The notes under the pieces were generated by a model. That model was not told the DNA's origin. It did no database searches and saw nothing but the letters and a program-made list of their open reading frames with translations. A stretch of DNA of 64,000 nucleotides from contig NW_024704801.1 in NCBI RefSeq assembly GCF_018977255.1, forward strand, positions 62,001 through 126,000. Direction: 5' to 3'. This document shows positions 1,465 to 61,175 of the stretch, one piece after another. This stretch comes from Callorhinchus milii (lineage: Eukaryota). Numbering within the stretch: the stretch's first letter is position 1; every line of letters begins with the position of its first letter. The position numbers were made by a program, and so were the translations under genes.

Positions 1465-4451
<2,987 letters not shown>

Positions 4452-5714: not shown

Positions 5715-6481
5715 CTGGATCTTCTTGGCCCTGCGGAGAGAAAGGAACAGTTTAGTTTAGTCCACAAATCTCTGGTCTCTTCTCTCTCCCGCCTTTCCTG
5801 CCTTTTCCCTCCTTTCACCGCATCTGCAGGAGACAACGATCATCTCCAGGGAACAGTGGAGCCTGGATTCGGGAGGAAGCCAGACAGGTACAGGGGCAGG
5901 AGGGGAATCACAGCCACTGGAAGCACCGAGACACCGGGATAGGTTTTTATTAAGGGAAGAAAATCTGCCTCTTATTTCAGTTTCAGCCAAACATTCCCCG
6001 ATCTCCTGCGAGGGTCAAGTCCCTCGGCCCCTTAAATATGTAAGACACCGTCCGGCGTGGAGGGCACTATATAAATCCAAGTTGTTGTTGTTGTTATTAA
6101 TCATTATCACGAGGTGAGTTTTTTTGGGGAATAAACAAGAATTGTCAATCGTAACTGCTGATTTCCGTTTGACGTGTATTTATTTTTACATTAAAAAAAC
6201 ATTAAAAGGACATTTCCTTGTGCCCCGCTGATGTTTGTTGAGTCTCTTTCTCTCTTTCTCTCCTCTCGACAGAACCCGCCCCAGCCGGGGAGTAAAGAAC
6301 AACAACAACAACTTGTACTAATATCAGTGCTTTTCTCGCGGGTTCGTGCCCCCCGGTGCCCGAAAGACACCCAAACTGGGGGAATCCGTGGCCTGTGTCG
6401 GTCAGCCGGGAGAGAGAGAGAGAGAGAGAGAGAGGGAGCGAGTGTCCAAGCCGAGTCCCGAGCCGGGTCTGGGTGGCTGCC

Positions 6482-8419
6482 ATGTATTGGCTGCTTCTCC
6501 TGCTGTTGGGCTTCAGGCTGGGCCGGGGTTGCCCAGCTTCCTGCTCGTGTCTGGGGCAGTGGGTGGACTGTAGCTCCAGGGGTTTGCTGACAGCCCCCAC
6601 CGACATCCCCGGGGATGTCAGGAACCTGAGTCTGGCTCACAACACAGTGACTGTCCTGCCTCTCGGTTACTTCAGCTGCTACCGGGAGCTCCTGGTGCTG
6701 AGCCTGAGGAACAACTCCATCACCGACCTCCCACTCGGACTCTTCTTTCCTCTCAAGAAACTCACCGTCTTGGACCTGAGTTACAACAACCTGACACAGG
6801 TGACATCTGGGCTGTTGCAGCCGGTGGAGAAACTCTCTCGCCTGGTCCTGAGCCATAACCCCGGCCTGTCAGTCATCAGCTCCCAGGCCCTGTCCGGCTT
6901 GACCCAGCTCCAGCACCTGGACCTCAGCTACAATGGCCTGACCTCCCTGGACCTGGAGACAGTAAAGAAGCTCCCGGCCCTGATCTCGCTCCAGCTCGCG
7001 GGCAACCCCTGGCTTTGTGGCTGCAACATGGAACCGCTCCTGAAGTGGCTTCTCACCAACCCGCACAACTGTAACTCCGGTAAGAAAAGTTACTTATGGT
7101 TCTCGTCCTTCGGTGGGAGACGTTAAAACCGCACTCACAGCTGTCGGGAGGGAAGAGAAGGGACTTTCTGTTTCTCTCTCTCCCCTGATGTGCTGTTCCC
7201 CAAATACAATCACTCATCAGCATCATGGCTGATTGCGGGAATGTTGCCCCCAAAGCACAATCTGGGCTCCCCCCTCCCCCTCACCAATCTGCGCCTCATA
7301 CTCTCTGGAATTGGGTGCCCCTCCAGGGGGAGAGAGAGAGAGAACATTCCATTCCAATAAACATCTTGGGAATTTCCATGTGTAGGTGGGAACCTGCTTC
7401 TCTCTCTTTCTCTCTGTGTTTCTGCCTTAATGTAATACAATCCCCCTCAGACCAGGACACATAACTAATCAGATTGTCACAGAGCACCTGCTCCCCCGCC
7501 TGCCTCTACCTTTATGATTGTAAAGATAATATATACGCACATAAATCCTACCTCGCGGACCGCACTTACACTCCCCTCCCCCTCTCTCTCCCCCTCCATA
7601 TCTCCTACGTGAAGGGCACTGTGTAAACACAAGTTGTTGTTATATTAATCGTTAGATTTGATAGTGCCTTTCACATTGGGAGGACGCCTCATAGCGCTTC
7701 ACAGGATCTACGGTAAAGTGTAGTGACTGTGTGTTTTGTGGGCGAACGAGACAGCCGATTCACACACAGAAACGTCCCCACAAACAGCCGTAAAGTGACT
7801 GAATGATTTTATTTGGGGGATTGTCAGCTAGAACTCCCGTCTCTTATTGAACAGAAACTTTCACATCCACCCGACTGACCAGGGCAGAGACGGGGTTGGA
7901 GGTTCAATGTCTTGAAGGATGGCATCTCGGACAATGCGTCTCTCTCTCCCCCAGCGCTCTCTCTCTCTCTCTCCCCCCAGCACTCTCTCTCTCCAGCATT
8001 CTCTCTCTCCCCAGCGCTGCACTGGAGCATCAGCCTGGACTGTGAGCTCAGAGTCCCTGTGTGTGGTGGGGGTGGGGGGTGGGGGGTGGGGTTGGGGCTC
8101 GAATCCACATCCTCCCGACTCGGAGGACAGAGAGCAAACGGCTGCACCACAGGCTAACACCCAGAGCTTTGTTATCGTTACAGATTCCGGGGAGCTGGAA
8201 TGTTCCGGGCCGAATGAAATCAAGGGAATCCGTTTTTTCTCACTGACAGACGAGAGTTTCCGCGCCTGTCGTCTGTCGCTGACGACGGACGATTATCTGT
8301 TCATCGTGTTTGTCGGCTTCGTAGTCTCGATCGCCTCCGTCGCAACCAACTTCCTCCTGGGGATAACAGCCAATTACTGTCACCGCTGGAGCAAGGCCAG
8401 CGAAGACGAGGAGATGTAA
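6482..8419 (+). CDS. LRRC55: Leucine-rich repeat protein 55 (BK channel gamma-3 subunit), 277 aa
   Basis: Exon 6482-7079 (signal peptide, [12 protein letters not shown], LRRs, [13 protein letters not shown]) spliced G|GTAAG to exon 8184-8419 ending [46 protein letters not shown], which closely matches the recalled LRRC55 TM/C-terminus. Candidate AATAAA at 11155-11160. Confidence 0.93.
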
Positions 8420-9980: not shown

Positions 9981-11269
9981 TCATAAGTTGATCATTTGAT
10001 GTGTGACAAGCGCAGGTTGGAGCCTTTACATGATGGACAAGGGACAAGGCTCTGATCAAGTGTCAGGGACCCTGCCCTGCGTGAAGGGCGCTATATAAAT
10101 GCAAGTTGTTGTTGTTAATCTCTCCCCAAACAGAGGAGCAGTCAACAGTACTGAGGCCTCAGATTACGTATAAATTATTAATTGGCCCAAAGTTAGAATC
10201 TCGAGTCCAGTGTTGATCAACAACAACTTGCATTTATATAGCCCCCCCACACGCAGTGTAATGTTCCGGAGGAACCTCAGGGCCAGAGAGGGGAGCAGAG
10301 GAGATTTACTCGGGTGACACCGGGGAGGAGTGGGTTGGTCTCTGAGCGGAGACGGGAAGAACTGGGACCTTTCCGGCTGCAACAAATAAGGTTAAAGGTG
10401 ACCCTGACGGAGAGTTTAAACTGAGGGGTTTTGATTAGTCAATTAGGGAGACATTACTTCACTGGTCGGTAAGTCGGTGACTAGAGAGCAGCAATGTAAG
10501 ATAGTTAGTAAACTAACAAACCGGGAGGTTAGGAGGAATGTTGTCATACTCACAGAGGTTAGGGTAGGGAAGACATACAGAGGTTAGAGTAGGGCATTAG
10601 ATAAATACCTTAAACAGGAGTGAGCGACAGGGGAATGGGGGGAAGGAGCCAGTCCAGACACGAGGGGCTGAATGGCTGCTTCTGTGCTGTAGATTCGTGT
10701 CAGCCTGGTTCAGTCGGTCTGGGAGCAAACACTATATTGTTGGAGATGCTTTCCTTCGGTTGAGACATTAAACCTCACTCCCTTTTCGTGGCCTTTAGCA
10801 GTGCTGTTGGAAAAGAGGAGTTTCTCTCTCTCTCCCGATATCCTGGGCGACAATCCCCCAGATACAATCAGTCACTGACTTCTGGACTGTTTGTGGGACG
10901 TCACTGGGCGCAAATTGGCTGCCGCTTCACCCACAAAACACAGAGCCACTACACTTTACAGTGATTCCTGTGAAGCGCTTTGAGACGTCCTCCCGATGTG
11001 AAAGGCTCTGTGTCAGATGTAAGGACAGTTACATGTAAATCTTTGCTTTTGTCATTGCCATTTTTATTCTGAATGAAGATAAAAACAAGATGTTTGATAT
11101 TTGCTGTGTGATATTGCCTGATGCATTTTGTAACTAGTATTTGATACAACGTGTAATAAATTTTAGTGCCTATTTTGTACGTGTGGATTCTTGATTGCAG
11201 AGAAGACTGTGTGCGATGTCCTCTTGTTTACGGTGTGTTATGTAAGTGAAGGGCTCCAAGACACTGCCC

Positions 11270-11560
11270 CAGTGTGAGGGTCTGGAAGACCGGGTTGTGG
11301 GGGGGAAGGGGAGGTGAGCGATGTTGTGGGGATGATGGAAATCTGGAGTGAGCAAGAGAACAAGACACCGAGGTTCTGCGCCGGCTCTGGGAGGTAGAGT
11401 GAGCATCGCTGTAGATCGATGCTGTCAGCACCCGAGGTGTGGAGTCGTTGATGGGAGCCAAGCAGGAGGACCTCGGTCTTGTCGACATTCAACTGGAGAA
11501 AGTTAGCTTTTGTCCAGGACTTGATATCCAACAGGCAATTTGTCAGAACAGCAGAGGTCC
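11270..11560 (-). mobile_element. L2-clade LINE reverse transcriptase fragment
   Basis: DIKSWTKANFLQLNVDKTEVLLLG followed by NLGVLF-like motif, typical of the end of the L2/CR1 RT domain. Confidence 0.8.
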
Positions 11561-11702
11561 TGGAATCAAGCGTAGAGGCAGAGAGAGAGAGAGACAGAAA
11601 GTTGCGTGTGGAGAGAGGGAGGGAGAGAGAGGTGAGTGTGGAGAGAGAGAGAGTTGAGTGTGAAGAGAGAGCGTTGGGTTTGGAGAAGGTGGGGTGGGGG
11701 GG

Positions 11703-13250
11703 TTATGTAATGGAGACAAAGCAGAAGATGGTGCCATGTGAGGAGAGACTTGCTTAATGCAGTTGGGACATTAAATGGCTTTTGATCAGTGAGATATCAG
11801 TGCCAAACATGTCCACCGAGAGGCAGACGTGATCTTTACCTTGAGGGATCATGTAAGGCATTGACATTATGCTCAGGACCCTGGGGAGTCTGTCCGCCAG
11901 CCAGCTCAACCCTCGCTGCAGTAACTTGTCCACATCCACAGGGGCTGGACTGAGACCCAGCCTTGGATAATCATCCTCCCCGGCAACACAGTGTGGAGCA
12001 CCCTCAGCTCCAGGAAGATTCTCCTGACGTCTGTGGGTTGGAGGGCCTGAGGCTGACAGTAATGGGGTTCACTGGCTCTCAGTGTATCCATTGCTGTTTC
12101 AGGATCTGCTGAAAGTTATTGTAGAATTAATACAAACCTGCCCTGTCCTCGTCCTCCCTCACACCAAACTCCTCATCAGCCCAACCCTCCCTCAGACCAA
12201 ACTCCTCATCAGCCCAACCCTCCCTCAGTGTGTATGTGTGTGTGTGTCAGCCTGGCTGTGTGTGTATATGTGTGTCAGCCTGGCTCAGTGTGTGTGTATA
12301 TGTGTGTCAGCCTGGCTCAGTGTGTGTGTATATGTGTGTCAGCCTGGCTCAGTGTGTGTGTACATGTGTGTGTGTCAGCCTGGCTCAGTGTGTATGTATG
12401 TCTGGCTCAGTGTGTGTGTATATGTGTGTNNNNNNNNNNNNNNNNNNNNNNNNNNNNNNNNNNNNNNNNNNNNNNNNNNNNNNNNNNNNNNNNNNNNNNN
12501 NNNNNNNNNNNNNNNNNNNNNNNNNNNNNNNNNNNNNNNNNNNNNNNNNNNNNNNNNNNNNNNNNNNNNNNNNNNNNGTGTGTAAAATGCATTGCACTGC
12601 ACAGTGATTCAGTGAAATATCGTCACCGTGTGGCCGAGAATTGCACCACAGGTGAGAACATTATAATAATAATAATCCTTGTATTTCATACAGCGCATTC
12701 TCACGTCGTCGAAATAACTCAAAGCGCTTCATAGCATATATTGTAAAGTGTAGTGACTGTGTATTTTGGGGCTGAAAAGCAGCAGCCAATTGCGCACAGC
12801 AACATCACACAAACAGTCGTGGATTGAGTTACCAAATTTTTTTTTTAAAAAAGGGATTATTACCCCAAAAAGCGATCCACCAATTGTCTAACAAGCAGGT
12901 TCCTATTCACAGCTAAGTAAACAGGCGTGTGTGTGTTTGTGTGTGGAGGAAGGAGACTTACCTAAGATTTCCCCCTGACCCGACCGGGAATCGAACCCGG
13001 GTCCTCTTGCTTGTGAGGAGAACACTCTAACCACTGAGCTACAGGACTCCACCATTGAATGGAGGAGGAGATGGAAACTCACCACCTGCCCTTTCCTCTT
13101 GGCCAGGATTACATCGCGGTTAGATTCCTGTAACCAGCTGTAGTATCTGCTGGGCAAGTAATCTAAACTGTAGTAAACATCAGAGGTAACAGCTAAACCT
13201 GCTGGAAATCATCCTACATCGCTCAGGAGTACTCCAGCTCCAGCTCAGAA
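11703..13250 (-). pseudogene. NAT16: NAT16 / histidine N-acetyltransferase-like pseudogene, copy A
   Basis: First coding exon ~13250-13083 reads ELEYS*AM*DDFQQV/LAVTSDVYYSLDYLPSRYYSWLQESNRDVILAKRKGQV|GTGAGT (stops at 13223-13225 and 13214-13216, frameshift ~13196). Last exon ~12143-11703 reads VLPGRMIIQGWVSVQPL/VDVDKLLQRGLSWLADRLPRVLSIMSMPYMIPQGKDHVCLSVDMFGTDISLIKSHLMSQLH*ASLSSHGTIFCFVSIT* (frameshift ~11940, stop 11754-11756). Matches recalled NAT16 motifs; middle exon not visible. Confidence 0.8.
12430..12577. other. Assembly gap (N run)
   Basis: Ns; further gaps at 19043-19215, 32680-32900 and 49002-49130. Confidence 1.
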
Positions 13251-14199
13251 CCCTCCGCCCCACGTCGAATGTTCGAGGAGGGAGATCATAGACGAGTAAC
13301 TACGCCTTCCAGAGGGTAAACACACTATCCTGTCACCCAGCACTGCCCAAGCGTAGTGACTGCATCATGTGTGAGACAAGTTAGGGTCCAATTTGCCACC
13401 GTGATGAGACACTGAGCAATTTTATCTCGGGGATTGTTAGCCAGGACATAAAATACATTTTATTTTGGGTCAATGGAAACCCGTCACGTGACCAGCCGGG
13501 TGTCTGACCCACATGGAAACCCATCATCGTGACACAAACAGAGGGCTGTGGCTCGATTCTAACATTCCATTGCTAACACGTCACCTTGGGACCAGCTCAA
13601 ATCTGAGAAGATCCCCCTTACCCCCACTCCCCCTCCCCCCTAGAGGAACAAGAGCATAGCCACACAGAAACAGAAATAAAAATAGATTAAAATATTACAA
13701 ACCGTCTGCAAAGCTGAAAGGACAGTTTGTCAAATCTGCAGCTCCACAGCCTGTCCTACTGCCCCTGAACACTGCCCCTCTCTCACGTGCCTTGGTTCCT
13801 GGCCAGATTTACACCATTTGCTAAGAACTCATTTCCTTGTGATCATCAGAAATGGCTAATAACTGATTGGGTCTGTCAGCCAGGCCATTGAGAGAGAGAG
13901 TGAGCGAGCGAGAGAAACTCCTATTTCTTTTCCTGGCAGCATCTTGGGAAATCTTTAACACCCGCCTGAACGGGGCACAGTGTATGTGTGTGTGGGGAGG
14001 AGGAGGGTGGGGGGGCAGCAGCTCACTTGGTTAGGAGAGAGAGAGAGAGAAATCAGTCCCAGTGTAATCAAAGACAGACAGAAATCCAAGCCAGTTTCCT
14101 GTCTCACCAAAGAGAATGTAATAAAGATTTCAGTATAAAAGGCCATGTGGTAAAGCTGAACTCTAACCTGGTTTTCACTCTCAGTCAGTAAAGCAGTCG

Positions 14200-15021
14200 G
14201 TGAGATGTGAGGACGGAGACACAGGGTTCTGTGAGGCTGACGATAACCAGGTAATGACAATCTTGGACGGTGTGTATGATGGGAATGAAATACCTGCTGA
14301 CCAGGTATCACCTCTGGCTCCAGGAACACAACCGTCTGGTGTTGCTCCTCAAGAGGAGCAGGCGGGTGGTGAGTGTCAATGTTTGGTGGCGGGGTGGGGG
14401 CAATAGGAGGTACCCCCCCCACAAACACACACACACAAACACACATACAAATGTACGAGAGAGAGAGAGAGTGTTGGTTGTCATCAGAGACACTGTCCTT
14501 GGAAACCCGTCACCATGACCAAGCCGGGTGTCTGACACACAGGAAAATCTATCACTGTGAGAGTCTCCGAAACAAGACGAGAATTCCTGGCCTCCCGCCT
14601 GTACATGGAAATCCCAGAGAGAGATTGTTAGAATGGAACGCGCGCTCTCTCTCTCTCTCTTTCCCTGGAGGAACACATCTTACTTACCTAATTCCGGAGA
14701 GTTTTTAGGCACAGGTTGGTGAGAGCCAAGGCTTGTGGGGGCAGCCCAGAGTGTGATTAACCATTGCTCGTTCCACTCTCTCTCTCTCTCTCTCCGTCTC
14801 TCTGTAGTTCGCCCTGGAGTTAGTGATTGTGATTGATGGGGAGCAGACGGTCTTGTTATAGGGGTTTGTGGGCGGCCGAGTGTAAGAGAGGCCGAGAGAT
14901 CGCGGGGAGACTCTGTACAGCTCCTCAAATCCAAGCAGCCAAACCTCAAAGCCGTCCAGCTGACCTGAGCCGACCAGCTCAAGCCAAACCACTCTCCCCG
15001 TTCACATTGCTCACTATCCAG
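14200..15021 (+). pseudogene. NAT16: NAT16 / histidine N-acetyltransferase-like pseudogene, copy B
   Basis: Exon ~14200-14368 reads GFCEADDNQVMTILDGVYDG/MKYLLTRYHLWLQEHNRLVLLLKRSRRV|GTGAGT (frameshift ~14284). Exon 14808-15021 reads FALELVIVIDGEQTVLL*G/LWAAECKRGREIAGRL/LLKSKQPNLKAVQLT*ADQL/PFTLLTIQ|GT (stops 14859-14861 and 14966-14968), matching the GNAT acetyl-CoA-binding exon of NAT16. Last exon not visible. Confidence 0.8.
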
Positions 15022-16875: not shown

Positions 16876-19800
16876 AGTAACTCCAGATCTGCAGTTATAG
16901 TTGCATCTCTGACTTTGACGCAAACAATTACCATAGAAACACGAGTAGGAAGTTATTATCAGAGCAGAGTTTAGGCTTTGACTTTGACAGTAACTTGTTG
17001 GCAAATGGAGACAGACTTGACTGACGTACATTAATCTCAGTCACAGCGTAAATGGGCATTTGCTTCACAGCCATCAGCAACGGCAAATGTTCACACTGCA
17101 GACAAGAAGCTGTAAACAGATGACTCACACTCTCTCGTTATCTCTCACTTTCTTTCTCTCACTCTCTCTCTCTCGCTCGCTCTCTCTCTGTGGAATGCTA
17201 GCAAACTAAGCCACCTTTTCTTTACAAAGTGAGGAGGTAACTATCTCTCGCTTCTCCATCAATCCATCAGTCATCATCATCAGTCGGGGTCTCTGATCTC
17301 ACAGTCCAGTGCAGCACTGGGGGGAGAGAGAGAGAGAGAGACAAATTGTCCTTCAGTTAAACCTCCCAGTCCGCGCCATGTTAAAGATCTCCCGCGGCTC
17401 TGTCGGGAAAAGTGAAGGGAGTTTCTCTCTCCGTGTCTTGGTCAACAATCCCCTGGATAAAATCACTCGCTCTCTTCACGCCTGTTTAAGGGATGTCACC
17501 GTGTAAATTGGCTGCTGCATAATACACAGTCACTACACTGTGAAGTGAATCCAGAGCTTTACCACCTGGCTGATCACGGTGACGGGTTTCCGTGTGTGTG
17601 TGTGTGTGTGTCAGACCCGGATCTGTATCAAACACAAAGTTTATTTATAGATTCACTCTCGTCACCTACTTCCATTTCGGCTCCTGAATGATTTCTGTGG
17701 GAAAATCATCAATAAATCAGCAGTCGCACTGCGAGTCTGTCACATCTCACCATCTGCCTCTGATTCCCGCTGCTTGTCCAGCTAGGACCAACCTCCCCGC
17801 TAGCTAGCTAGCTAGTTAGTTAGTTGGTTGGTTGGTTGGTTAGTGCTTTGGCTGCCGGGTTAACAGGAACAGGATTCCAGTTCCTGCCGATGTCTGAGCC
17901 GGGCCGGGCTGGGCTGCCATCAGCAGTGAGCGCCCTGGGACACTGCGGCCCCTCCTGGCTCAGGAACCAGGGGCTAGAGACCGTCCCGGAGTGGGGGGGG
18001 CTCAATTCCCACATTGTGTCACCTTGGGGCCAGTTCAGCTCCGAGGAGATCCCATTTACCCCCCCACCCCCTCCCCGTGTGTGCCTGTGTGGTGGGGGGA
18101 GAGGGAGCTTGAACCCACAACCTTCTGATTCGGAGGCAAGAGAGAGCGACTGAGCCACAGGATGAGTGAGTGACAAGTTGGGGAAGAAAGCAGATTAATG
18201 GACAAGTGCGTTTAGCTAAATGAGCCTCAGTCAGTCAGTTTCTCCCTCTGCCCCGTCCTCGCAGTGGGACAGTGTGATCAGTCGGCTGTGCAGTCCCCCC
18301 CCACACCAACCCCCCACTAACTGCTGACTGTATCACTGCACCAAGATCACCCCCCACCCCCCCCCCATGCACCAGCAATGACGCACATCAAGGGTTTTTT
18401 GCAAAAGTGAGTCACCCGCCTCAGGAGATCAGCAACTTCACCATCAACTGCAGAAAGCTTTCCTGAATACCAATCTGTGTGTGTCTGTGTGTGTGTGAGA
18501 GAGGCTTCCTGAATACCAATCTGTGTGTGTGTCTGTGTTTATCCGTCTCTGTCTCTTTGTGTATATGTGTGTCCATCTGTCTTTTTGTGTGTGTGTGTCT
18601 GTCTGTCTGTGACTGTGTGCGGTGGGGGAAAGAGATGGAGAGAGAAATCAGTATCATTAATTACCTGTTATAAACCAGCTTCCTGTTTAACCTTGATGTT
18701 CTCAGCTGCTCAGTCTTATTGCAATAATTGTGATTAGCTCCATCTCCATCAGGCCATTCCCTCCTCCCCATCACGAGATTGTGGGTTCGAGCCCCGCAAC
18801 GAGCTCAGTCCAGGCTGACACTCCAGCATAGGGCTGGGGGAAGAGAGAGATAGAGAGAGAGAACCACATTGTCAGAGTCGTCGACCTTTTCAGATGAGAC
18901 TTTAAACCTCATTCACTCACTCCCTGTTCTGGGCGGACATTAAAGATTTCCCGCAGTCCTGTCAGGGGGAAAAGAGAAGTGAGTCTGTGTCATACGAGGC
19001 AAGAGAAGGGGAGAGAAAATAAAAGGAGAGAGAATGAGGAGANNNNNNNNNNNNNNNNNNNNNNNNNNNNNNNNNNNNNNNNNNNNNNNNNNNNNNNNNN
19101 NNNNNNNNNNNNNNNNNNNNNNNNNNNNNNNNNNNNNNNNNNNNNNNNNNNNNNNNNNNNNNNNNNNNNNNNNNNNNNNNNNNNNNNNNNNNNNNNNNNN
19201 NNNNNNNNNNNNNNNACCTTCTCAGAAGATGGGATCTATTCTCGTTCTCTTATTCAGCCCTCAGGGTGACAGAAAGCTGAAACAACAGTTCTCCGTGTCG
19301 TGCGTCGTATTAAACACGACAGAATTGTGTCTGTGGGGGAGGGAAACCGAACTCAAAAAACAAACCCAAATCGCTGGAATTGACATCTGAGAAAATGTGC
19401 TAAAAAGGATGGAGGAAATTCAGATTAAAAGGGTTTTCTGACTGATTTATAATGATGTTCATAAGTGAGTGGGTCTCCTCTCCGTGCCACAATCATAACA
19501 GTAAACCTTACACGTCACACAGTCTTTTCCGTCAGGAGGACGTGTCAAAAGCCACGTTTCACCCACACAATACACAGTCACTACACTTTACAGTATATCC
19601 TGTGAAGCGCTTTGAGAACCTCAAAGACAAGATAAGGTTCTGCGTCAAATACAAGGATTATTATTGTTGTTGTTATTAAGTTTGAATCAGGGCGGGGCGC
19701 GGGGGGGGTGTAGGGGGTGGGGGGTGAGCAGGTCTGAGACCAGAGCAGGAAATAGCTGGGGGGGGATCAGGAGCTGCGACTGAGTCTAACTGCGTAAGTG

Positions 19801-20526
19801 ATGATGTCACTGGGTCCCTGAGCTGATCTGTGGGTCAGGAATATCGCACATCGATGGAGATTCGTTCAGAAAAAAAACTGTGAATTGTTTTTGTCAAAGG
19901 CTGAGCAGGAAGGTGGGGGTCAGCACCCACACTGAGGTGGAGGGGGAAGGGGGGGAGAGAGAGAGGGAGAGGGAGAAAGCGGGAGGAGAGTGGGGTGGGA
20001 GGGGGAGAGATAGAAGAGAGGTAGTCGGAGAGGGGGAAGGAGAGAGAGAAAGGAGATAGTCAGAGAGACAGTGCACTTGTCTCAGGGAGGACATTACCAG
20101 TTGCTGTGAAAAGCGTCTATCAATGGAGGTGGGAGATCTCACCGCAGTGAGAAAGACCAGCACAGGCTCTATGTCAGCTCAACACCCACAACACACAACA
20201 TACAACACGCACAACGTACAACACACACAACATACAACACACACACAACATACAACACACACAACATACAGCACACAGCACCACACACAGATAAGATAAA
20301 TGTGCCACACAACAACAATATGCAGCCCCCCACCCCCCCACGTAGGGCAGCGGCTCCGATGTGTGGGGCAGGACCCCATCTCCTGCTATTATCTTGTTAC
20401 TTTGCTTGTGGGATTAAAAGATCAACTGAGCCTCTGGAACAGGCTGGGAGGGCTGAATGGCCTCCGCACGCACCAGTTTTCCTACATGATATTTGCATCT
20501 TACAGAGAATCTACAATCCTCTTGAG

Positions 20527-21385
20527 GCTTGGGGGTGGGGGCAGGGTGGGGGGGAGGCTTGGGGGGTGGGGGGGAGGCCTGGGGGGGGAGGCTTGGGGGG
20601 GGTGGGGGGGAGGCCTGGGGGGGAGGCTTGGGGGGGTGGGGGGGAGGCCTGGGGGGGGGGGGAGGCTTGGGGGGTGGGGGGGGAGGCCTGGGGGGGGAGG
20701 CTTGGGGGGTTTGGGGGGGATACCTGGGGGGGGAGGTTTGGGGGGTGGGGAGGAGGCCTGGGGGGGGGGAGGCTTGGGGGGGTGGGGGGGGGGGAGGCCT
20801 GGGGGGGGGAGGCTTGGGGGGGGGGGAGGCTTGGGGGGGGAGGCCTGGGGTGGGGGGGGGAGGCTTGGGGGGGGTGGGGGAGGAGGCCTGGGTGGGGGGA
20901 GGCTTGGGGGGGTGGGGGGAAGCCTGGGGGGGGGAGGCTTGGGGGGGTGGGGAGGAGGCCTGGGGGGGGGGGGGGGCTTGGGGGTGGGGGGAGGCCGGGG
21001 GGGGGAGGCTTGGGGGGTGGGGGAGGAGGCCTGGGGGGGGGGGGGAGGCTTGGGGGGGGAGGCCTGGGGTGGGGGGGGGAGGCTTGGGGGGTGGGGGAGG
21101 AGGCCTGGAGGGGAGGCTTGGGGGGTGGGGGGAAGCCTGGGGGGGGGAGGCTTGGGGTGGGGGGGAGGCCTGGGGGGGAGGCTTGGGGGGTGGGGGGAGG
21201 CCTGGGGAGGGGGAGGCTTGGGGGGTGGGGGGAGGCCTGGGGGGGGAGGCTTGGGGGGTGGGGAGGAGGCCTGGGGGGGGAGGCTTGGGGGGGTGGGGGG
21301 AGGAGCTTGGGGGGGTGGGGGGGGAGGCTTGGGGGGTGGGGGGGGGAGCTTGGGGGGGTGGGGGGGAGGCCTGGGGGGGGCGGGA
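20527..21385. repeat. G-rich tandem array (ggaggc[c/t]tgggggg..) with G-quadruplex potential
   Basis: ~860 bp of G5-G12 runs separated by aggctt/aggcct/t, ending ~60 bp upstream of the VGF CRE sites. Confidence 0.9.
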
Positions 21386-21447
21386 CTTTTCCTTCACCTT
21401 TTCCAAAAGGATGAATGAAATGGAATGAAATGAATGAATGAAATGGC

Positions 21448-23901: not shown

Positions 23902-25479
23902 ATGACTTGGAGAGGACCCTTTCCAGCCTCTGTGCTGCTGGTACTCACCCTCCAGCTGCTGTGTCCTTGGCCGAGCACTGCGGCCTCTCTGGCCCCTCAC
24001 AACGGCTCTGTCCGGGCAGTGACGGGAGTTCAGGATCGAGCCGCCTTCCCACGGGATGTGAATGGGTCGGAAGAGCAGGAGCGAGGGAAGCATCTGCAGG
24101 TCCGCTCCCTCCCCATGACCCACCCCAACATGGACACTGACAATCAAGGGGATCCGTTCAGGGACATGGACGCCAAAGCCTTGGCCACGATCCTTCTCCA
24201 AGCTTTGAAAATAGACGATGAGAAAACTGGAGAGAGGGAGGGCGAGCGAGAAGCCGGGAGTCTGTCCCTGTCAAACCCCTCGATGTGGCGCGAGGCGGAC
24301 AAGGATTCCTTGGTTGAGAACGTGAAGAGTCAGACGAGGAGTCGGGAAAGTGCCCCTCAACGGCAGGTCATGGCCTGGGCTCCCGAGAGGGAGGACGGGG
24401 GTGAGGTCAGTCCTCAGAGCATCGAGCAGATGGAGGCCATGTTACAGGAGCTGGAGAAATACAGCACGGCGACCAAGCGGGAGAGATCCAACACTGCCCT
24501 CCGCTCCGCAAAGACCTCCCGGCCCATCAGCAAACAGCCAGAGGACAGCAGTATGTTGGGGAACATGGATGACATTGAGGAGCTGGTTGGAGGGATGGAG
24601 AAAGACACCGACTATAACGAGGAGCACGAGGTTATGCAAGAACCAGCCAAACGTGCGGACAAGTCTGTGTCCAGGTTCCAAGCCGGGTCCTTGAGTCGCC
24701 TGGGAACTGGGGAACCAGGGCCAGACAAGGCCGAAGAGGAACAGATAGCGGACATCACCTCTGACCTCCTGTTACAGTATCTGCTTAAAGGGGGCGACAT
24801 GGCGGAGCAGGAAGACAGCGCCAAGGAAAAGCTTACTGACGGAGAGAGGAAGAGGAGCGATGAAGAATGGGAAGAAGATGTGGCTGAAGAGAAGAGATCG
24901 GACGAGGAAGGTGGTGATGATGATGATGATGATGGTGGTGACATGGATCCGCAAACTATAGACCGGTTGATCGAGATCTCCAGCAAACTCCACCTTCCGG
25001 CCGACGATGTCATCGATATCATCAACGACGTGGAGAAGAAAAGGAAAAACTCTGTGGAGAAGATGGAGCCGACAAGACACCATCACACGACCCCCAGGGA
25101 CCGGATCAAACCTGCTCCCGGCCGGTCAGACCAGCGTCAAAAGGTCTACCTCCCCACTCGCCATCGACCAGAAAAGCCACGACACTGGTCTACCAGCGAC
25201 ATGGCCTTACAGGACCTGCTCGGGGCAGACAACGAGCTGGACTATGGAGCCATGCCCCTGGTCTACCCCAGACGTTTTCACCTCCAGCAGAACCTTTACC
25301 CCAATTACATCCGGCCCCGGGTTTACCAGCCTCGACACAGCACTTACCGCTATCAGCCCAGCCCCTCCCTCCTCCAGAACGAAGATTATTACGATGATGA
25401 TCAGGCCCAGGACAAGGAAGAGGAGCTGGAAAACTACATCGAGAAGATCCTTCTCCAACACCCTGAGGTTTTCCAGTAA
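23902..25479 (+). CDS. VGF: Neurosecretory protein VGF (granin family precursor), 525 aa, single coding exon
   Basis: Acceptor AG at 23890-23891; signal peptide MTWRGPFPASVLLVLTLQLLCPWPSTAA; VGF motifs DPQTIDRLIEISSKLHLPADDVIDIINDVEKKRK, YPNYIRPR and EEELENYIEKILL; acidic with dibasic sites; adjacent to AP1S1 as in mammals. Confidence 0.93.
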   Translation: MTWRGPFPASVLLVLTLQLLCPWPSTAASLAPHNGSVRAVTGVQDRAAFPRDVNGSEEQERGKHLQVRSLPMTHPNMDTDNQGDPFRDMDAKALATILLQALKIDDEKTGEREGEREAGSLSLSNPSMWREADKDSLVENVKSQTRSRESAPQRQVMAWAPEREDGGEVSPQSIEQMEAMLQELEKYSTATKRERSNTALRSAKTSRPISKQPEDSSMLGNMDDIEELVGGMEKDTDYNEEHEVMQEPAKRADKSVSRFQAGSLSRLGTGEPGPDKAEEEQIADITSDLLLQYLLKGGDMAEQEDSAKEKLTDGERKRSDEEWEEDVAEEKRSDEEGGDDDDDDGGDMDPQTIDRLIEISSKLHLPADDVIDIINDVEKKRKNSVEKMEPTRHHHTTPRDRIKPAPGRSDQRQKVYLPTRHRPEKPRHWSTSDMALQDLLGADNELDYGAMPLVYPRRFHLQQNLYPNYIRPRVYQPRHSTYRYQPSPSLLQNEDYYDDDQAQDKEEELENYIEKILLQHPEVFQ

Positions 25480-58904: not shown

Positions 58905-61175
58905 TCAGGCTGCGGGGGGCAGGCGGAGCCAGTGGAGGCCAAGAGCTGAGCAGGCAGCCCCCAGGAGCAGGGAGGGGCCCCTCATCCCCCCGCTGGAGGT
59001 CACGTCTCGCTTGGCTAAAGTCTCAGGGCTGAAGCGGTCGAGCCAACTCCAGGCTCGCTGGGCAGTGCCATCGCTCAGCTCAGGCCTGAATGTGGGGTGC
59101 TTGTGAGCCCATGATTGCTGGGTGGACTTGGCTGATTGCTGGGTGTGCTGGCGCTTGTGCTTGGAGTTGGGCTGGGGGGCAGGTTGGGTGGGCTTGGCTG
59201 GTCGCTCCGTGGGCTGGGGTTTGGGGGGAAGTTGTGTGGATGTGGTGTCTGGCGAGTTCAGAGACTGAGCCAAATGCTCGATGATCATCTCCTGTGTCCA
59301 GTCCCTGGCGGGCGAAGGGGGCACGAAGGGGATGAAAGGTTTACCCGCGGCCGAGGTGACTCTCCGTATCCAGTCGATGAACTGGGCCACGCTGGTGTGG
59401 ACCTCAGCCGGCTGGCAACTCTCCTCGACGAGGCTCCTCGTGCCCACCAGCACCCAGCGCTGACTGTGTGTGTCCTGGCAAACCAGTGGCCCCCCTGCTT
59501 CTCCCTGTAACACAGAGAATCACAGCGTCCAACACAGTGTGTTCACTTCTCCTGCAACAGAGCAAACCCTCGCTCCCTCCGCTCCACCATCGGCAGCCGC
59601 GCTTTCAGCCACTGCACCCCAAAACTCTGTCACTCCGTCCCACTCGCCCCTTCTTTACCCATCTTCAGATCTGCAAACCTTCCTCCTCGACGGTGCCTAC
59701 AGTCACCTCTCTCCCCGGCTCGGGGTCAGGCTCTGTCACCATGACAGAGCTGTGTACCCGCGAGGCTGATGTTGATGTGACTCACGGTGCAGTTGGGGTT
59801 GGGGTTATGAGTGCAGATCATACTGCTGAGTAGCCTCGGCCCCCAGATCTCCGCACACTGTGTCCTGTTGACGTAGTGAGTCCTCAACTTCTGCAGGAAC
59901 TGGGTATGGCTACCGGGACCTGTGGGCACAGAGCTTGAGGTCACAAATATAATATAATAATAATCCTTGCGATTGGCAGAATTCCACAGCAAAGTGTAGT
60001 GACTGATTATGGACGGACACGCTGCTGTGTCCTGCACTGAGGTGCTTGCTCTCTGGCTCACTCTGTGTTGTGTGTGTGTTTATGTCTCTCTCTCTCTCTC
60101 ACCTTCAGACAGAAGGCTCCAGCCAGACACCCAGCAGTTCTGGATTTCCTGGGGATCGAGGAAGTTGTTGTCGGGGAAGCAAACAGCGGAGACTGAGTTG
60201 CTGAACTTAACGGGGATTCTCAGCTGGAGAAGAGCGATGTCCGCCCGGGAAGACAAGGGCTCATAGTCCTCGTGACAGATTATCTTCCCCACCTCGTGGC
60301 TGACCTTCTGCCCCTTCAGGTCAACCAACCCGACCTGAACACTCAAATTAGCCGCTGCTCTGAAAGATAAAAATAATAATAATCCTTTAGGTTTGACACA
60401 GCGCCTTATCATGTCTTCGAGACGTCTTAAAAGCTCTTCACAGACTACGCTAAAGTCAGTGTGTGTTTCATGGGCAAAACGCGGCAGCCAATTGCGCACA
60501 GCAACATCCCACAAACGGTCGTGGATTGCGTCATCACAGTCACACACACACACAGTCTCACACTTTTTAACTCATGCGCACACTCCAGCCTCACACACAG
60601 TCATACAGACACACTCCAGTCTCACGCACACACACATACACACACACACACAGTGTTTACCTGTTGCTGACACACCGAGCTCCTGTGACGATCCAGACGT
60701 GGCTGATGAGGGAGCCTCCGCACTGATGCTGGCCGCTATGGGTGAGGGAGACCTGCCAGGGGAACTCCCCCAGTCCAGCTCTGTCCCCGGCCTGAGCCAG
60801 AGCAGCCTCCGTCACTCGCTCCCCACACTCTGCAAACACAGGGGTCAGCACCGGCCTGTAAACACACACCTCCCACCAACCCCCCCACCCCCACCCTGCA
60901 CACATACTCACACACCCCACCCCCCCCGCACACAGTCTTTCCTGATCGACCGTGCTTATGGCCACCTCCACCCTCCCTGGGCTCAGAGTCAGGCTCCGCC
61001 GCTGTTAAGCGCTCTGAGCCACTGCCCGGCGTGGCGGGCGCTATGTAAGTGCAAGTTGTTGTTGTTATCTCACTCTATCACACACTCTTCGTGTGCTGTG
61101 CTCACCGTGGCTGCCCTCGCTGGCCCAGCCCACACTGGCCCAGACGAGGATGGCCAGCAGGCAGGGGGCTGGCAT
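58905..61175 (-). CDS. Catalytically inactive trypsin-like protein (pseudoprotease, PRSS54/55-like) with probable GPI signal; ~409 aa
   Basis: Exons 61175-61106 (signal MPAPCLLAILVWASVGWA), 60829-60661 (GEFPWQVSL..CGGSLISHVWIVTGARC), 60359-60103 (ADIALL..CWVSGW), 59919-59786 and 59504-58905 (GEAGGPLVC..DWIRRVT..). GT-AG junctions, 1230 nt uninterrupted; His->Arg and Ser->Ala at the catalytic positions; hydrophobic C-terminus. Confidence 0.88.

Follow-up and report, generated by a model that had tools for sequence, protein, structure and literature searches.

The closest described relatives of the genes considered here are the human histidine N-acetyltransferase (HisAT, NAT16; PDB 9EMD, 9EMO; PMC12219266) and the fish histidine N-acetyltransferase (EC 2.3.1.33). 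The latter makes N-acetylhistidine, a molecule of brain and lens. N-acetylhistidine is found in bony fish, amphibians and reptiles (PMC4496688), and in the fish lens, where it reaches tens of millimolar, it has been linked to cataract in farmed salmon, its role being unsettled (PMC4496688, PMC12219266). Human NAT16 sits between MOGAT3 and VGF; birds, mice, rats and many mammals other than primates either have no such gene or have it in a decayed state (PMC12219266). The present study concerns a stretch of 64,000 nt from the elephant shark, Callorhinchus milii (RefSeq assembly GCF_018977255.1, contig NW_024704801.1, positions 62,001 to 126,000 of the forward strand; this whole stretch is referred to below as the window), in which two decayed NAT16/HisAT genes, copy A on the minus strand and copy B on the plus strand, lie head-to-head at a distance of 9 kb from VGF. 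They are like the human and fish enzymes in the first GNAT and Hisat_C regions, in what appears to be a three coding-exon layout and in their adjacency to VGF, and differ from them in being broken and incomplete, and in that two head-to-head copies are present instead of one gene. The losses in birds and mammals affect the same VGF-adjacent locus (PMC12219266), whereas here the animal is an ectothermic cartilaginous fish and two remnants are left. The A/B pair consists of real, apparently undescribed pseudogenes, and is a new case of an already known kind of loss.

Two NAT16 family pseudogenes beside VGF

There is very little doubt as to the NAT16/HisAT family identity of the two copies, their lesions, the organism, the synteny with VGF and the loss of constraint. 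A profile search in all six frames of the window gave four segments scoring 56.5, 50.6, 27.6 and 21.6 bits; the window read in reverse reached no more than 1.5 bits. The initial annotation had described two first coding exons on opposite strands, about 1 kb apart and both ending in GTG/GTGAGT, and these were recovered: the peptide quoted for copy A starts at 13163 on the minus strand and that for copy B at about 14285 on the plus strand (its motif being at 14288), the exons end with GTG/GTGAGT at 13083 (-) and 14368 (+), and their 5' ends, at about 13255 and 14205, are some 950 bp apart. Exon 1 of copy A matches human NAT16 (PDB 9EMO) with E 1.5e-9, the next GNAT reaching only E 0.97, which rules out another GNAT family, and for exon 1 of copy B NAT16 is the sole match in the PDB (E 0.0024). 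Exon 3 of copy A matches Pfam Hisat_C (PF24066) in two frames (E 9.7e-18 and 6.2e-5; 64.7 bits, cut-off 27) and also matches human NAT16. Read in a single frame, exon 2 of copy B gave no NAT16 match in PDB or Pfam and at most 5.7 bits in the profile search; its frameshift-aware score is 89.6, versus a maximum of 33.1 among 299 control tiles. Other GNAT families score worse, and both the original assignment to NAT16 and the position beside VGF are upheld. Copy B has the same orientation as VGF, which is presumably also the case for NAT16 in human. The VGF reading frame (23902..25479, +) is intact and 99% identical to C. milii V9KR13, other listed species reaching no more than 46%; with 3 substitutions among 523 residues compared and zero frameshifts, it serves both as a synteny anchor and as a control of sequence quality.

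Each copy has its own stops or frameshifts and none is shared, in agreement with the separate decay proposed for them. In copy A, exon 1 carries TGA (13225-13223), TAG (13216-13214) and a -1 frameshift near 13195 that is located in a T run, while exon 3, the splice acceptor of which is not recognisable, carries a -1 frameshift near 11938 and TAA (11756-11754) and ends at 11703, about 33 codons short; in all, this copy has 3 stops and 2 frameshifts besides its truncated end. Exon 1 of copy B is shifted by +1 near 14278-14281, and is immediately preceded by an acceptor-like tract and an ATG that is out of frame. Exon 2 of this copy, 214 nt in length versus 225 nt in intact genes, has intact splice sites (AG acceptor, 14808; GT donor, 15021) and is disrupted by a +1 frameshift near 14859-14862 (across a TAG), a -2 frameshift near 14917 with a 3-codon gap, TGA (14966-14968) and a further -1 frameshift near 14990 seen only against the nat16l profile, giving copy B a total of 4 frameshifts and 1-2 stops. 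Disrupted downstream exons had likewise been described, and here the result is narrower, with one for each copy (exon 3 in A, exon 2 in B) and only one. Exon 2 of copy A (225 nt) and exon 3 of copy B were not found in the sequenced window by the six-frame profile search. The family appears, from exon-skipping shark isoforms, to have three coding exons; exon 2 of intact genes comprises 75 codons (225 nt) and exon 3 184-190 codons (about 550 nt), so that each missing exon exceeds the stated N gaps of the window (12430-12577, 148 N; 19043-19215, 173 N), the sizes of which may be understated.

The HisAT binding residues checked were Phe63, Tyr74, Tyr79, Gly123, Leu124, Val126, Arg131, Gly134, Ala136, Thr160 and Trp246 (PMC12219266). 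Copy A retains Phe63, Tyr74, Tyr79 and Trp246, and the exon bearing the remaining binding residues is missing; in copy B, Phe63, Val126 and Gly134 are gone and the exon for Trp246 is missing. Neither has the full set of residues for binding histidine and acetyl-CoA, nor, given the stops, frameshifts and missing exons, an intact double-GNAT frame over three exons, and neither can encode the double-GNAT enzyme. Conserved columns were those with the same residue in 90% or more of 46 named intact proteins. Of these residues, 26/32 are retained in A and 19/35 in B, the median for intact proteins being 100% (minimum 91% and 83%). Since retention is lower in B, this copy probably died before copy A; the difference (Fisher p 0.022) is weakened as a comparison in that the counts rest on partly different columns. 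In a simple simulation the decay is equivalent to about 0.10 (A) and about 0.3 (B) neutral substitutions per site. With disabling lesions, lost constraint, and introns and splice sites kept, A and B are unprocessed pseudogenes, and the presence of the introns and splice sites rules out a retrocopy. If no working NAT16-family gene exists at this locus, the elephant shark would provide a natural knockout in an ectotherm that has a lens.

Exon 1 alone is present in both copies; outside it, in flanks and introns, no A-B homology was found other than interspersed repeats. The two exons differ at 43% of nucleotides, and their presence in two copies with such a difference rules out a single gene split by an inversion. 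Differences affect 24/43 third positions and 13/43 second positions (Fisher p 0.029), and this excess at third positions suggests that selection acted for a period after the duplication; a copy B dead from the outset is only marginally disfavoured. The lack of a shared lesion in exon 1, together with the contrast between third and second positions, supports the earlier proposal that the duplication preceded the decay, or at least most of it. No measured neutral rate for C. milii was found in the literature search, and dating by 2.2e-10 per year (assumed in PMC4422223) gave impossible ages for copy B, so no absolute date is offered.

Table 1. Remnants of the two NAT16 family copies and the intervals between them (positions in the window).
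Feature	Position	Strand	Remarks
Copy A exon 3 remnant	11703..12135	-	Last coding exon; second GNAT domain, Hisat_C; aligned part 12100-11706
Interval expected to hold copy A exon 2	12136..13082	-	Tandem repeats, 148-N gap 12430-12577, interspersed repeat 12649-13052
Copy A exon 1 remnant	13083..13255	-	First coding exon; 2 stops, one -1 frameshift, intact GT donor, no in-frame ATG seen
Spacer between divergent 5' ends of A and B	13256..14204	.	About 950 bp, short interspersed repeats only
Copy B exon 1 remnant	about 14205..14368	+	First coding exon; +1 frameshift near 14280, intact GT donor; aligned from 14227-14233
Copy B exon 2 remnant	14808..15021	+	Acetyl-CoA binding region; three frameshifts, 1-2 stops

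The interspersed repeat in the interval expected to hold exon 2 of copy A has up to 29 matches within the window. Directly adjoining the truncated end of copy A are a microsatellite and a reading frame (11241-11702, -), the latter resembling the tail of a long interspersed nuclear element (LINE) reverse transcriptase, with no Pfam match.

Family members in sharks, rays and other vertebrates

A homologue search with the shark/ray protein P0003 as query listed 60 proteins among 2545 candidates and is incomplete. Among the matches listed are full-length histidine N-acetyltransferase/NAT16 proteins from at least 16 shark and ray species (P0003-P0018), all 16 covering 97-100% of the 318-residue query, and an exon-skipping isoform from a 17th elasmobranch species. 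The shark/ray gene and VGF seem to be on the same scaffold, judging by contigs of equal length, in 6 of the 8 species in which this could be tested. No Callorhinchus protein is among the 60 listed matches, which is weak evidence given the incompleteness of the search; a representative library gave 3 matches, none above 48% identity and none from Callorhinchus. A direct search of a 5.8-billion set with a 61-residue piece of copy A gave no relative (4 candidates).

Of the residues that stack on histidine or bind acetyl-CoA, the shark and ray proteins keep Tyr79, Leu124, Val126, Arg131, Gly134 and Trp246 in 16/16 cases, and Tyr74, Gly123 and Ala136 in 15/16. Asp163, placed near the ligand in PMC12219266, is absent from all 16 (15 Gly, 1 Arg), and Thr160 is changed in 7/16; both are invariant in 20/20 bony NAT16 proteins and in 3 teleost nat16l proteins. 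These differences might alter the specificity of the shark proteins, and the full-length family member kept by sharks and rays may be a sister gene rather than the known enzyme.

According to the initial annotation, gene loss would explain a lack of N-acetylhistidine in cartilaginous fish. We know of no confirmation of that lack in the literature. No mention of cartilaginous fish was found under the terms searched in the available part of PMC4496688, nor any of sharks or Callorhinchus in the available text and supplements of PMC12219266; a search for literature on this locus or on N-acetylhistidine in sharks, outside which most subscription papers lay, found nothing relevant. The explanation does not hold in its original form, given the full-length proteins of at least 16 shark and ray species. 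The comparison with sharks and rays called for in that annotation likewise gave intact, full-length annotated family members, which confines the demonstrated loss to the chimaera. In a modified form, the gene that cartilaginous fish lost may be the true HisAT orthologue.

In bony fish the family comprises two paralogues, which in zebrafish are nat16 and nat16l. The frog matches (P0049-P0060) form a divergent multi-copy group, with 2-3 members per species in several species, which joins teleost nat16l, and the 60 matches listed include none from frogs that is of the bony NAT16 type. Several single proteins deserve mention. P0001 (470 residues) resembles a catshark sequence, is without exon 2 and has exon 3 repeated; it is possibly a gene model spanning tandem or partial duplicates. 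P0002 is a 203-residue Hisat_C protein and the match of highest identity (48%) to the C-terminal piece of copy A; it is without Trp246 and its position in trees is unstable. The Chiloscyllium proteins P0013 and P0018 have different N-termini, are about 0.27 substitutions per site apart and may be paralogous; in P0018 Tyr74 and Ala136 are changed.

Origin and loss of the two copies

The affinities of the copies were assessed with profiles, each free to pick its own frames, in comparison with simulated decay. Exon 2 of copy B scores 46 points better on the bony NAT16 profile than on the shark profile, a value reached by 0/80 simulated decays of shark sequences, 0/45 of nat16l and 57/100 of bony NAT16. 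Exon 3 of copy A scores 53 points better on the shark profile; simulations as low as this number 0/40 for bony NAT16 and 0/24 for nat16l, and 31/32 of the shark ones go lower. Copy B exon 2 fits the human and fish HisAT group and copy A exon 3 fits the shark and ray proteins P0003-P0018, which are, however, full length; neither resembles a decayed teleost nat16l.

The first tree used 47 of 62 proteins, leaving out 15 isoforms, partial, low-quality or near-duplicate rows, and later trees used 32 named references after 14 more had been dropped, one of them with P0002 added. Copy B groups with bony NAT16, with support of 79/43 (47 proteins) and of 93/97 and 91/62 (32 references). Copy A groups with elasmobranchs at 100/99 in two of the 32-reference trees (LG+G4), and in the 47-protein tree it lies in an open fork with elasmobranchs, P0002, nat16l and frogs. 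The teleost nat16l and frog NAT16-like copies, joined at 98/91 in the 47-protein tree, represent a second bony paralogue lineage, which the central branch of the best trees places on the side of A and the sharks. A direct sister relationship of copy A to teleost nat16l alone is rejected by the approximately unbiased (AU) test (p 0.019). When the tree is rooted between its two sides the species tree is matched twice and one duplication is needed.

On balance, and with slightly better than even confidence, these sequence comparisons favour a duplication that predates the split between cartilaginous and bony fish, copy B being the orthologue of bony NAT16, whose histidine acetyltransferase activity is proven, and copy A that of the shark and ray gene. 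Copy A would in that case belong to the branch of the family that also includes teleost nat16l and the frog copies. The orientation of copy B relative to VGF fits this reading. Because bony fish already have two paralogues, one old duplication would explain all lineages. Most probably, an inverted gene duplication produced two divergent, head-to-head NAT16/HisAT genes at the VGF locus, both of which diverged under selection for a time; copy B was lost first and copy A separately later, and point mutations (stops), small indels and frameshifts, exon deletion and repeat insertion then eroded them. If copy B is a true HisAT orthologue, the annotations of the shark genes would represent hidden paralogy.

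A number of observations weigh against this old duplication. Exon 1 is intermediate in the profile test in both copies, and the mean identity of copy B exon 1 is 46% to sharks and 41% to bony NAT16. The trees are unrooted, since a prokaryotic scan of genome contigs gave no relative that could act as outgroup. Both copies are long branches, and the join between teleost nat16l and frog copies is flagged as long branches meeting. The grouping of copy A with elasmobranchs on exon 3 falls to 55/94 under a mixture model, and its nesting inside rays in three trees is an artefact. The AU test does not reject A and B as sisters (p 0.113), A and B with elasmobranchs (p 0.271, 0.76 log units), B with elasmobranchs (p 0.338) or A with bony sequences (p 0.105 and 0.2). 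For the trees, the frames of exon 2 of copy B were picked with bony and nat16l profiles, which introduces a bias; the profile tests escape this bias and cannot exclude retained ancestral states. The family also duplicates often, with several copies per frog species.

A more specific version of the old duplication is tentative. Jawed vertebrates may have begun with two head-to-head NAT16 paralogues, of which cartilaginous fish would have lost the true HisAT early, leaving copy B as its fossil; the shark gene would be the sister paralogue, which the chimaera would later have lost too (copy A). The annotated shark and ray enzyme, without Asp163, would then possibly act on another substrate. If so, the said absence of N-acetylhistidine in cartilaginous fish would be explained despite the annotation, and the pathway would date to the jawed-vertebrate ancestor.

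A competing account, to which a lesser though appreciable probability attaches, is that one chondrichthyan NAT16 orthologue underwent an inverted duplication in holocephalans only and that both copies were then lost, sharks holding an ordinary NAT16 orthologue. Its two key groupings are among those that the AU tests fail to reject (p 0.11-0.27), and the unrooted tree also permits a clade of sharks and bony NAT16, yet no maximum-likelihood tree containing both copies joined A and B. In exon 1, A and B are closest to each other by the tree identity table for copy B (48% over 42 columns), yet single references reach 50-55%, and no homology between the copies survives in flanks or introns. Exons 2 and 3 are each present just once in the window, and under such an account B may have lacked exon 3 from the start, as a partial copy of exons 1-2; the lower bound of 0.40 on third-position divergence is, by extrapolation, near that of a copy B dead on arrival. 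Duplications are common in frogs and probable in bamboo sharks, but here two independent ones (bony stem, chimaera) would be required, as would an ancestral gene whose exon 2 was bony-like and whose exon 3 was shark-like. The bony look of copy B could, again tentatively, be retained ancestral sequence that was later changed in sharks. Amphioxus, mollusc and cnidarian sequences (PMC12219266 supplement), compared by eye, are bony-like at one exon 2 motif and shark-like at another, a comparison that does not settle polarity. The initial annotation had held that the gene was duplicated in this lineage and then lost; the loss of both copies at the chimaera locus stands, and a lineage-specific duplication is not favoured by the best trees, the AU test leaving it as an alternative. 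If the duplication is restricted to the chimaera, the locus would add another independent case to the frequent losses already known for this gene.

That function was kept, the lesions being assembly errors or an intact family gene lying elsewhere in the elephant shark genome, is very unlikely. The first C. milii assembly was built on 454 reads (PMC3964593), the window has N gaps and the exon 1 frameshift of copy A falls in a homopolymer; however, at least 4 stops are of the substitution type, conserved residues have been lost, and the missing exons are larger than the gaps. The clean VGF frame nearby, the substitution-type stops and the eroded conserved residues argue that the decay is real and not sequencing noise. 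As to an intact copy elsewhere, the view is limited to 64 kb and to an incomplete homologue search, but that search listed no Callorhinchus protein and the representative library gave nothing above 48% identity. A loss of the NAT16 family across all cartilaginous fish, accounting for the missing N-acetylhistidine, agrees with both chimaera copies being dead but can be given almost no credence in view of the full-length proteins of the sharks and rays and the scaffold that these genes seem to share with VGF.

Neighbouring genes and repeats

Beyond VGF the window contains clathrin adaptor small chain and serpin genes, which we take to be AP1S1 and SERPINE1. At the spot corresponding to human MOGAT3 there is a two-exon leucine-rich-repeat gene (6296-8416, +), resembling LRRC55; MOGAT3 itself was not searched for. 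Trypsin-family serine protease genes are present at both ends of the window (1468-3845, -; 58908-61004, -). An extremely G-rich tandem repeat of about 900 bp (20500-21400, +) lies just upstream of the probable first exon of VGF.

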